A stretch of 64,000 bases of DNA. Origin: Haliotis cracherodii. Its lineage: Eukaryota. The stretch's first letter is position 1, and each line of letters opens with the position of its first letter. Positions 35,414 to 40,983 of the stretch are shown one piece after another. Below the pieces are notes generated by a model that saw only the letters and a program-made list of their open reading frames with translations, did not search any database and was not told the DNA's origin. The stretch covers positions 34,348,001-34,412,000 of the forward strand of contig NW_027266270.1 in assembly GCF_022045235.1 (NCBI RefSeq), written 5' to 3'. The translations under genes were made by a program, and so were the position numbers.

Positions 35414-37452
35414 TATGATGGTTTGACACTTTCGTATGCAAACCGTCACAATATCTAGAATTAGCCTTGGGGAATTAGCTCGGGATCGGGCACCACCTTC
35501 AAAGAAACCAAACAAAGTGTCTATGGCCAGCTCCTTTATTGGGGATTTCTCGACAGTCATTTCACATTTAAAATAAGAAATATTTTTACATATAAAGTAC
35601 AAAGTCATATAGAACATTTACAGTTTCCATAAAAGAAGCAGTTATCACAATAGTGCGTGATATTAAACAATGATTATACATAAGAGTGTAAATGTCATGA
35701 TATACAAATGTATCATGGGCTTATTGATAAAATAACCAATTACAAATAACAATATTAAAGTCAGTCTACAAAGATACCTGTGAACAAAGCTTACATGATC
35801 TTATGTGATACTTATTTTCAGCCACTCCTAATTATGATTACGCCTTGCTAAATGGGACTGCCATAAGGTATGTCTTATTTACGTATAAACCTAGTTAAAC
35901 CCAATATCGGTATCGAATGTACGCAGATTTAAATATAAATAACAACATGCGTTGGCTGTACTTCTGAGCGAATATCATTCATTGTTTTATGCTGGTATAT
36001 GTTATACTTGAAGGCCATATCTATAATTCATCTAAACTACCGGAACAAACAAACTATATCTGATAGCATCCACATACACTGAGTTAACGGGCCCATTAAC
36101 AAATGTCCATTCACATTACTGAATGGTATAATATATGGATATATGTACATTTTAGGCATTGCTCGTAACGTAGACATGTTTGCTGAAGCTGTGTTACAAA
36201 TGTATTATGCTCAGACCTATGTAAATACAAGAGAGTTACCTATCTTATTTGTACATCGCTAACAGATTAGCTAAATGATTACATGGATATTATTACTGAT
36301 TTTAGCTCTGGCTTAGTTGTGCTATTAGCATAAATATGTGTGATGTGAATACATCATATATTAGCTACAGAAATTAACGTTTTCTGCCAGGCTAGATCCA
36401 TCAAATAACTCATATAAAAATTATTTAAAACAGTCTGGATTCTGTTTATGAACAAGTAATACATGCAATGTATGGTTCATCATAGAATCCTTACATTAAA
36501 AGATATGTACATACCTCGTGTGATATAAAAGGTCTGATCAAAGTGAAATAGTTCGTCTGCATTTACGCGACATTTTCACATATACAAAATAACTGAATCA
36601 CACTAAAATATCAATAAGCAGATAAAATACACAGCTTGCTACCACGACACCCGAATGTTAACATCTTATTTCCGACTCGGAACATGTTTGATATTCAATA
36701 TATGCCATACTGTGGAGTTAATACTTAAACGATAGTTTTGTCTAAACCTAACGCACGTATATTTGACAGATAAGTCCGTTAAATAGATACAACTCACTTA
36801 ATATATTTGCACTTATACACGGTCAATAACCTAAGATTAAACACCTTTACAGCTGGTAATATTGCTCCATATACGATACAAATTATAAAACAATTTAACT
36901 TATAACTTTAGAGAAATAGTAAGGTGAACATGACTTACCTTCAAAGAAACCAAACAAAGTGTCTATGGCCAGCTCCTTTATTGGGGATTTCTCGACAGTG
37001 AGGTACCCCCGGGGCTAGCCAGTATATATACTCTAGACACCTTGAATGGTCACGAATTTACTGCATGTTCAATTATCAGCTTGATAAGAAAATTTGAGTT
37101 CGTGCGTCGAGAATAGGGATTAAGGCTTGCCTAAGAAGTTTGACCAAGTGATGTCCACATAAGTTGAATAATAATTGATGAAGTAGTCCGAAAATATTGA
37201 TATGAGTTGGACGTATCAGCAAACGTGTGACAAGCGCTCATTGCGATAGAGGCTGAGACACGTACAGATAGATAATACTGACCATGCTCCAAGGATGTTA
37301 TGTAATTTTCTAGATAGCTGCGACCTTCACATGTGAGACTGATTGAAAACAGCACCTTACATTTAACTTAATATAACACAATAAAGACTATTACCACAGT
37401 TAACTATTACATAAATATTGAGGAAAACATGACCAATTTTACAACTATGACA
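35414..37452 (-). repeat. 3' LTR (2039 bp) with an internal 63-bp duplication
   Basis: Starts TG right after the PPT-like tract and runs to the TSD; 63-bp identical segment at 36937-36999 and 35495-35557. Confidence 0.82.
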
Positions 37453-37461
37453 ATACCCCTG
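37453..37461 (-). other. Polypurine-tract-like site
   Basis: Minus strand TTTGAGGACAAAAG...CAGGGGTAT|TGTCAT; short purine run abutting the LTR. Confidence 0.55.
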
Positions 37462-37621
37462 GGCGTCGTGGAGCTTTTGTCCTCAAAAGCTTCAAGATTG
37501 AGAACGTACACAAAATGACAATCAATCAAATAAACAAAACACAATATCAATCATGAAATGTGAATACACTAGCTGAAACAAATGATACATGATGCATTGC
37601 TCAAATATTGCTGCCCACACA

Positions 37622-39988: not shown

Positions 39989-40099
39989 CAGACTCCACGT
40001 AGACCCTTAGAGAAACGAAATAGGAAACCATAAGAAAGATGACCTGGAGATGCAAAATGCCTGCAGAACATTAGCAAATCCTAGCACTTAAAGAACGCA

Positions 40100-40983
40100 G
40101 ACATTTTCACATATACAAAATAACTGAATCACACTAAAATATCAATAAGCAGATAAAATACACAGCTTGCTACCACGACACCCGAATGTTAACATCTTAT
40201 TTCCGACTCGGAACATGTTTGATATTCAATATATGCCATACTGTGGAGTTAATACTTAAACGATAGTTTTGTCTAAACCTAACGCACGTATATTTGACAG
40301 ATAAGTCCGTTAAATAGATACAACTCACTTAATATATTTGCACTTATACACGGTCAATAACCTAAGATTAAACACCTTTACAGCTGGTAATATTGCTCCA
40401 TATACGATACAAATTATAAAACAATTTAACTTATAACTTTAGAGAAATAGTAAGGTGAACATGACTTACCTTCAAAGAAACCAAACAAAGTGTCTATGGC
40501 CAGCTCCTTTATTGGGGATTTCTCGACAGTGAGGTACCCCCGGGGCTAGCCAGTATATATACTCTAGACACCTTGAATGGTCACGAATTTACTGCATGTT
40601 CAATTATCAGCTTGATAAGAAAATTTGAGTTCGTGCGTCGAGAATAGGGATTAAGGCTTGCCTAAGAAGTTTGACCAAGTGATGTCCACATAAGTTGAAT
40701 AATAATTGATGAAGTAGTCCGAAAATATTGATATGAGTTGGACGTATCAGCAAACGTGTGACAAGCGCTCATTGCGATAGAGGCTGAGACACGTACAGAT
40801 AGATAATACTGACCATGCTCCAAGGATGTTATGTAATTTTCTAGATAGCTGCGACCTTCACATGTGAGACTGATTGAAAACAGCACCTTACATTTAACTT
40901 AATATAACACAATAAAGACTATTACCACAGTTAACTATTACATAAATATTGAGGAAAACATGACCAATTTTACAACTATGACA
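40100..40983 (-). repeat. 5' LTR, truncated to its first 884 bp
   Basis: Identical by eye to 36569-37452 (ORFs 37131 and 40662 translate identically); lacks U5 and PBS. Confidence 0.88.
40464..40561 (-). promoter_or_regulatory. LTR core promoter (TATA, Inr), poly(A) signal and 5' splice donor
   Basis: Minus TATATATA at 40561-40554, TCA(+1)CTG at 40530 (31 nt downstream), AATAAA at +18, GU-rich tract, GAAG|GTAAGT at 40469; same layout at 37030-36933. Confidence 0.72.

Follow-up and report, generated by a model that had tools for sequence, protein, structure and literature searches.

A 5,570-bp insertion on the minus strand of the abalone Haliotis cracherodii, at positions 35414-40983 of the 64,000-nt stretch analyzed here (contig NW_027266270.1; hereafter the window), carries one uninterrupted envelope gene between two copies of a long terminal repeat (LTR). 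The element is a deleted member of an active family of Ty3/gypsy errantiviruses of the F type, in the operational sense set out in the mollusc survey of Chary and Hayashi (PMC13524379), and this copy is very probably a young, unselected, dead-end deletion derivative of that family. We see no sign of host adoption of the envelope gene, and nothing points to domestication. The env-only copy itself is ordinary, and its value lies in what it exposes of the family's LTR and of the way in which Env is expressed.

The insertion interrupts ORF2 of a decayed long interspersed nuclear element (LINE) on the plus strand. The upstream part of ORF2 (33128-35413) holds a reverse transcriptase domain (RVT_1, E 3.2e-29), and the reading frame resumes across the insertion site into the downstream part (40988-41682). 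This host LINE had already been noted to carry stops, and one is present at 34963-5; the frame also changes near 33901. The target-site duplication, ATAG on the minus strand, lies at 40984-40987 upstream and at 35410-35413 downstream of the element, and contigs of two public runs show the LINE with a single copy of these bases, that is, with an empty site. Those contigs possibly come from other LINE copies, which weighs against this reading, and the duplication can also be read as a 3-bp TAG that fits the sequence equally. Errantivirus LTRs run from TG to CA and lie between target duplications of 4-6 bp; this element starts with TG and is flanked by the 4-bp duplication, and its terminus is CATA rather than CA. 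AT opens the four bases adjoining the LTR start here and also in two other flanks, which hints at a target preference.

Between the repeats, env is the only ORF; gag and pol are absent from the copy, and it has no primer binding site (PBS), so that it is unable to move again. The surviving stretch of the 5' LTR (40983-40100) is identical to 37452-36569 of the 3' LTR at 884 of 884 positions, the 95% upper bound on the divergence being 0.34%. The first mismatch falls at 40099, 111 nt before the env start codon at 39988. The original prediction had placed the break at this point and had described an env-only derivative lacking the 5' U5, PBS and gag-pol, with identical LTR copies and a young insertion date, and all of this stands.

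The env ORF (39988-37622, minus strand) encodes 788 aa from ATG 39988 with no internal stop, as had been reported. The protein matches Baculo_F of Pfam (E 3.7e-18) and has a signal sequence (residues 1-16), an RTKR furin site (110-113), a fusion peptide (this label and that of the signal were given by eye), two membrane helices (571-607 and 639-669) and a beta-rich region (670-780). The best matches of its structure model (mean pLDDT 78.8) in the PDB are the F proteins of respiratory syncytial virus and paramyxoviruses (E about 2e-9), and the envelope looks like a working class I fusogen, in line with the earlier suggestion that the locus could express a fusogen. After the second helix, residues about 670-788 (window 37625-37985) include a conserved beta-rich domain of ~110 residues modelled with pLDDT 89-96. 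This domain had no Pfam match, and an Atlas search with residues 665-788 gave no usable hit; the two predicted membrane helices would place it on the ectodomain side. An env 3' spacer with a polypurine-tract-like end follows the ORF (37453-37621, minus strand), and 37444-37490 also matches contigs of other elements.

The nearest of 190 Env homologues are named H. cracherodii proteins. The window locus belongs to an Env cluster of four members, in which the three siblings differ from the window Env at 2, 4 and 11 of 741 residues (98.5-99.7% identical), and none of the 741 residues is private to the window copy. Relatives with pol, which the original prediction had proposed to look for, exist: sibling P0121 carries Integrase_H2C2 and rve domains directly before the same Env (Baculo_F), and P0001 retains an integrase tail. 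The sibling gene models start downstream of RT, and the loose contig ends showed no PBS. In 20 of 47 metagenome loci, too, env is preceded by an integrase. We identified the GPY motif of the integrase tail by eye, and a GPY/F-type integrase tail is a hallmark of errantiviruses (PMC12440569). The family combines an envelope of the F type, complete with its signal, furin site, fusion peptide and anchor, with a DDE integrase upstream of env. H. cracherodii also has a second multi-copy env family (68% identical), to which one of H. asinina is related (P0002, P0124, P0125; P0003, P0126, P0127). Assignment to Troyka elements, which have CG...CG ends, a 3-bp duplication and no env, was rejected because the window element has a TG start and an env.

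The complete 3' LTR is 2,039 nt long and follows the plan U3-R-spacer-R-U5. Its key feature, overlooked in the earlier note, is a block of about 61-63 nt that is present three times in the element, from 40530, 36999 and 35557 on the minus strand. This block, taken here as R, starts at the initiator 31 nt below the TATA box (TATA at 40561, initiator A at 40530) and contains AATAAA. The truncated 5' LTR consists of a 453-nt U3 (40531-40983; TGTCA start, TATA at 40561-40554) that is identical to 37000-37452 and is the putative promoter, R copy 1 (40470-40530; AATAAA at 40513, no ATG), and the first 370 nt of an intron-like spacer cut by the deletion (40100-40469). In the 3' LTR, also on the minus strand, U3 (37000-37452) is followed by R copy 2 (36939-36999), the complete spacer (35558-36938; 1,381 nt, 69% A+T), R copy 3 (35497-35557; AATAAA at 35540) and an 83-nt U5 (35414-35496), at whose end three X5 contigs with other flanks also stop. 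R copies 1 and 2 end at a donor, AAG/GTAAGT (40469 and 36938; slashes mark splice boundaries here), and copy 3 is followed by GTGGTG, with no consensus donor. When 360 GT and 250 AG sites were ranked with a crude matrix, the donor at 40469 came out best of all GT sites. The TATA box, initiator and LTR donor listed as retained in the original prediction are in place.

Contigs of X17 and X12, which bear two organism labels, connect the spacer to R on both sides, so the twin-R layout is real and common to both labels. X5, a deep contig set with the same organism label as the best-matching runs, contains LTR copies missing 1,442 nt (35512/36955), 474 nt (36282/36757) and 809 nt (36395/37205), the first of which is a short U3-R-U5 form without the spacer. 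X17 has LTR contigs and no env, and X17 and X12 show almost no U5 or none; this is only a hint of RNA stopping in the last R, since contigs give no ends, strand or level. At the U5 end, a hairpin with a GAAA loop (35414-35450) is more stable than any of 200 shuffles (z -3.8), whereas R3-U5 taken as a whole is no more stable than its shuffles (z -0.7), the excess stability being confined to the last 42 nt. The sequence TGGTGCCC after R copy 3 was considered as a PBS and rejected, as it lies inside the LTR, 83 nt from the end common to other copies. A scan of 35300-41100 against Rfam gave a single match at chance level (E 4.7), and the idea of a ribozyme or retrozyme was dropped. DIRS and Ngaro elements, which use a tyrosine recombinase, have an A-B-A-B terminal layout. 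They were rejected as well, because the siblings carry an rve integrase and the window element has U3-R-spacer twice and R three times.

The LTR plan was screened in 32 loci downstream of env and in three more, and the LTR could be resolved from purine tract to PBS in L009 and L015 only. The Env of L009 is 29% identical to that of the window, and its LTR follows this plan with a sequence that is unrelated (best BLAST hit 26 nt, E 0.016). Its R lies 29 nt below a TATA box, is 67 nt long and contains AATAAA; CAG/GTATGA follows the first copy, then come a 192-nt spacer (80% A+T), the second R with CAG/TCTTCA behind it, U5 and a TGG primer site. The U5 end of L009 has hairpins too, with a CA terminus. 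In L048 the plan is ambiguous, with an N gap right after AAG/G at the R end (4315-4596), and L049 (300-440) offers AATAAA, a strong acceptor, a short U5 and a TGG primer site, which is only a compatible second half of such an LTR. The L048 and L049 loci sit in two Sedimenticola metagenome-assembled genomes and are probably host DNA.

A role in RNA processing can be proposed for this layout. U1 bound at the donor would silence the first AATAAA, and the donor-less second R copy would end the RNA. In the 5' LTR, a splice with its donor where the first R stops and its acceptor where the second R stops would remove the live poly(A) signal and rebuild R-U5-PBS. The genomic RNA would then have to be spliced, and the LTR intron would persist since it is copied from the unspliced 3' end. 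A repeat reaching from cap site to donor may itself be the mark left by strong-stop cDNA of a spliced RNA that landed far 3'. We found no description of a duplicated R or of an intron inside a retrotransposon LTR in the literature listings, whose coverage leaves out most subscription papers, Repbase and bioRxiv supplements, and the intron-containing LTR may be an undescribed way of controlling RNA processing. The full proposition, that an errantivirus lineage carries R twice around an intron in each LTR for poly(A) control, makes Env as a Gag fusion and yields Gag-free env genes in one step through deletions that free the LTR donor, is one that we put forward tentatively, at slightly less than even odds.

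The R duplication could instead be an accident of one aberrant strand transfer or insertion with no role in splicing or polyadenylation. Several observations speak for such an accident. The AAG in which R copy 3 ends is only a modest acceptor (rank 26 of 250) and lacks a branch-point consensus within 60 nt, which also counts against our proposal; the complete LTR of L015 shows no R duplication; and the X5 form without spacer joins U3-R directly to U5. An accident sits less well with the unrelated LTR of L009, where the repeat again starts within the same distance of TATA (29-31 nt for the two elements), encloses AATAAA and ends at AG/GT in the first copy only, or with the occurrence of the long form under two organism labels. 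We regard the accident as a substantial possibility that is nevertheless less than likely. The twin-R LTR in two distant families is in any case a sharp and cheap hypothesis, given that 12 published mollusc elements have LTRs of more than 1 kb (12 of the 23 entries with LTR coordinates among 30 of the 46 rows of the survey table, PMC13524379).

The second question that the copy exposes is how Env is made. The pre-env spacer (39989-40099, minus strand) contains candidate acceptors at 40060, 40043 and 40005, ranked 6, 7 and 10 of the 250 AG sites, and these correspond to the acceptors that had been proposed near 40061, 40044 and 40006. One contig, record 7 of X12 (depth 8.6), covers env up to 40006, departs exactly at the acceptor 40006/40005 and runs on for 743 nt in gag-like sequence; the first 30 departing letters, read by hand in the env frame, are the start of a CxxC knuckle. 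Three NCBI models of a sister family show the same knuckle-env join. Among 30 named gene models hand-picked from the homologues, 17 reach upstream of the ectodomain motif by 45 residues or more. CxxCG stands 25-32 residues before that motif in 11 of these 17 (7 mollusc genera), an arrangement present in none of 17 plain ORF calls and none of 411 background windows. A GGT codon at the knuckle motif (CxxC-x-G/CxxC-G) supplies a phase-1 donor in 6 of 7 loci, several of them related and with L009 and L043 not counted; L049 combines a CAG/GTAAGG donor with a phase-1 env acceptor, and L011 has no GT at the knuckle and its own env ATG. The parent element would be built of 2,039-nt LTRs of the plan U3-R-intron-R-U5, gag, pol and an F-type env. 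In its env mRNA a donor in the zinc-knuckle codons of gag would be joined to acceptor 40005, and the product would be a Gag-Env fusion that has its signal sequence inside and is presumably processed.

Several points count against this splice. The direct evidence is one contig from a run only guessed to be RNA and under another organism label, the knuckle-env gene models are automatic predictions of which three come from one family, and L011 and L048 both have an env ATG of their own. Acceptor phase helps little: the pre-env acceptor is in phase 1 in 14 of 20 loci compared with 233 of 511 controls, a weak result (p 0.024) from non-independent loci, and the strong acceptors are in phase 1 in 9 of 12 compared with 34 of 56 (p 0.24). 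In this test 9 of the 30 loci were skipped, and the row for the window, which had been mislocated, was dropped.

The deletion in the window copy removed the gag partner exon of env. The claim that the envelope expression cassette is intact therefore fails, since the family joins acceptor 40005 to a gag donor that is lost here; an env cassette is possible, and it is new. The LTR donor, left without its likely partner, may now be used with the env acceptors, so that translation from ATG 39988 would give Gag-free Env as a by-product; we consider this plausible rather than probable. Because the R exon lacks an ATG, joining 40469 to 40005 would make ATG 39988 the first. That codon has a weak context, and no more than 9 of 54 homologues have a Met at its position; 8 nt further on there is an out-of-frame ATG in a strong context (39980), and the upper acceptors add an ATG at 40031. 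No LTR-donor-to-env splice of the window copy was seen in the contigs of public runs. If the proposal is true, deletions that free the LTR donor are a ready one-step route to Gag-free env genes and to env capture.

The deletion junction itself can be defined from the siblings. Contigs of X5 and X12 track the window from env to 40105 and then diverge into other sequence, and AATGTC at 40100-40105 (minus strand) is an exact 6-nt microhomology between the LTR spacer (36574-36569) and the siblings' pre-env region. Microhomology of at least 6 nt occurred in 0.2% of 200,000 random pairings (chance 0.002). The original prediction was right about microhomology at the junction, and the exact hexamer refines the imperfect match that it described. 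It had also argued that the deletion must postdate integration. This is not required, as a full-length RNA can lose the 5' LTR end, PBS and gag-pol in plus-strand transfer. Premature second-strand transfer has a precedent in HIV-1, where upstream primers recovered 23 large deletions and 20 of these had their start upstream of the PBS (PMC12657518). In the abalone element, plus-strand strong-stop DNA would stall in the 2-kb LTR, a length that should favor such stalls, and transfer early onto the minus strand by a jump between the two AATGTC hexamers, 370 nt into the 5' LTR intron and 111-117 nt before env. Integration would then proceed normally and with a target duplication, because both att ends survive. 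We lean slightly toward deletion during reverse transcription over later repair in the chromosome.

Three other histories of the copy were weighed against this account. A full-length copy could have integrated and then lost about 1.15 kb of LTR together with the PBS, gag and pol by microhomology-mediated chromosomal repair, as a neutral event. A 6-nt microhomology suits end joining as well as template switching, but the absence of any difference between the LTRs leaves little time after insertion, and a break inside the 5' LTR is, by analogy with HIV-1, the pattern of premature second-strand transfer; we give this history somewhat under an even chance. Collapse of gag and pol out of the assembly is very improbable. 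In its favor, four runs gave no read or contig that spans the junction. Against it, the join falls at a real 6-nt microhomology, which is shorter than an overlap collapse would need, the element has clean ends and a clean target duplication, and the only N run of the window (52043-52200) lies ~11 kb from the element.

The third history is the early env capture proposed by the original prediction, in which the LTR donor has been rewired to the env acceptor and the host keeps Gag-free Env to fuse cells or to interfere with the parent element or the abalone herpesvirus. In its favor are the intact ORF with furin site and predicted F fold, the R exon without ATG, and the existence in flies of Iris as an invertebrate precedent (PMC1262188). 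The second-best viral fold match to Env, an uncharacterized 801-aa abalone herpesvirus protein (E 1.3e-27, 16% identity), adds to this, and it may be the envelope fusion protein of haliotid herpesvirus 1 (HaHV-1). Such a fusion protein is strongly expressed in HaHV-1 (PMC6353905). At 16% identity, shared receptor use with the herpesvirus protein is unlikely, the start context is weak with competing ATGs, and the copy shows no sign of a selected history of its own after leaving its parent: it has 0 of 741 private residues, 0 of 884 LTR differences and near-identical siblings with pol, and no contig crosses its junction in X5. In that set the depth of the last bin before the junction was 65.9, compared with 65.8 from the sibling contig alone, which suggests that the env-only copy is not fixed. 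Contigs show presence and not absence, so the missing X5 junction is no proof of polymorphism and tempers that suggestion; the raw-read run X18 was not used, since 123 of 127 reads were only partly placed, at a depth of about 1. The caveat of the original prediction, that youth alone may account for an intact ORF, fits better: the recent origin of the copy explains why its ORF is intact, and capture is a very remote prospect. Whatever the fate of this copy, the fold match suggests that the fusogens of malacoherpesviruses and mollusc errantiviruses share an origin; by structure prediction, a herpesvirus of the abalone host carries a related fusion protein. A search of viral contigs gave 0 relatives among 292 pattern hits. 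A scallop homologue of Env is named 'transmembrane protein ORF68'.

Elsewhere in the window, tandem arrays occupy 21151-22705, 29850-30716, 57960-59700, 11903-12713 and 1360-1854, with units of 43, 27, 21, 34 and 45 nt, respectively, and the long ORFs near 29.9 and 58-59 kb derive from such arrays. Several SINE-like (short interspersed nuclear element) dispersed repeats are also present.

The family resembles the mollusc F-type errantiviruses described in PMC13524379 in its F-type Env, which has the signal, the furin site, the fusion peptide and the anchor, in the integrase before env, in its near-identical copies and in its long LTRs; unlike them, the window copy lacks gag, pol and PBS. That survey lists 46 mollusc elements; its table has no H. 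cracherodii entry and marks H. rubra and H. rufescens 'No intact copies', so that a recently active env-bearing family is now shown in abalone, where two marked Haliotis species had given no intact copies. Its Discussion calls transmission mechanisms elusive outside Drosophila, and in its main text the string 'splic' does not occur and neither a gag-env splice nor an LTR intron is treated. The LTR plan and the knuckle splice address Env expression and RNA processing in non-insect errantiviruses.

Like Iris, which is a domesticated env gene as the syncytins are, the window element is a lone intact F-type env ORF in a host chromosome. Iris, however, dates back at least 25 million years and is a selected gene with orthologues across species (PMC1262188), whereas the window copy has no private change and still has its LTRs. 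The LTR recalls those of HIV-1 and foamy virus, in which poly(A) suppression depends on U1 (PMC3694450), in having a donor beside the LTR poly(A) signal and placed to silence it; the donor lies downstream of the signal as in HIV-1 and inside the LTR as in foamy virus. In both of these viruses R is unduplicated, whereas the window LTR has a second, donor-less R behind an intron-like spacer, for which a function in RNA processing is proposed here; the proposed twin-R solution to the poly(A) problem is not listed for retroviruses. Finally, in the idefix subclade of Drosophila errantiviruses the env donors lie inside gag (PMC12992720), and in the abalone family the env exon would likewise be spliced from inside gag. 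Unlike in this insect subclade, the mollusc donor maps to the first CxxC-G of the zinc knuckle, in 7 genera, by prediction and by one contig.

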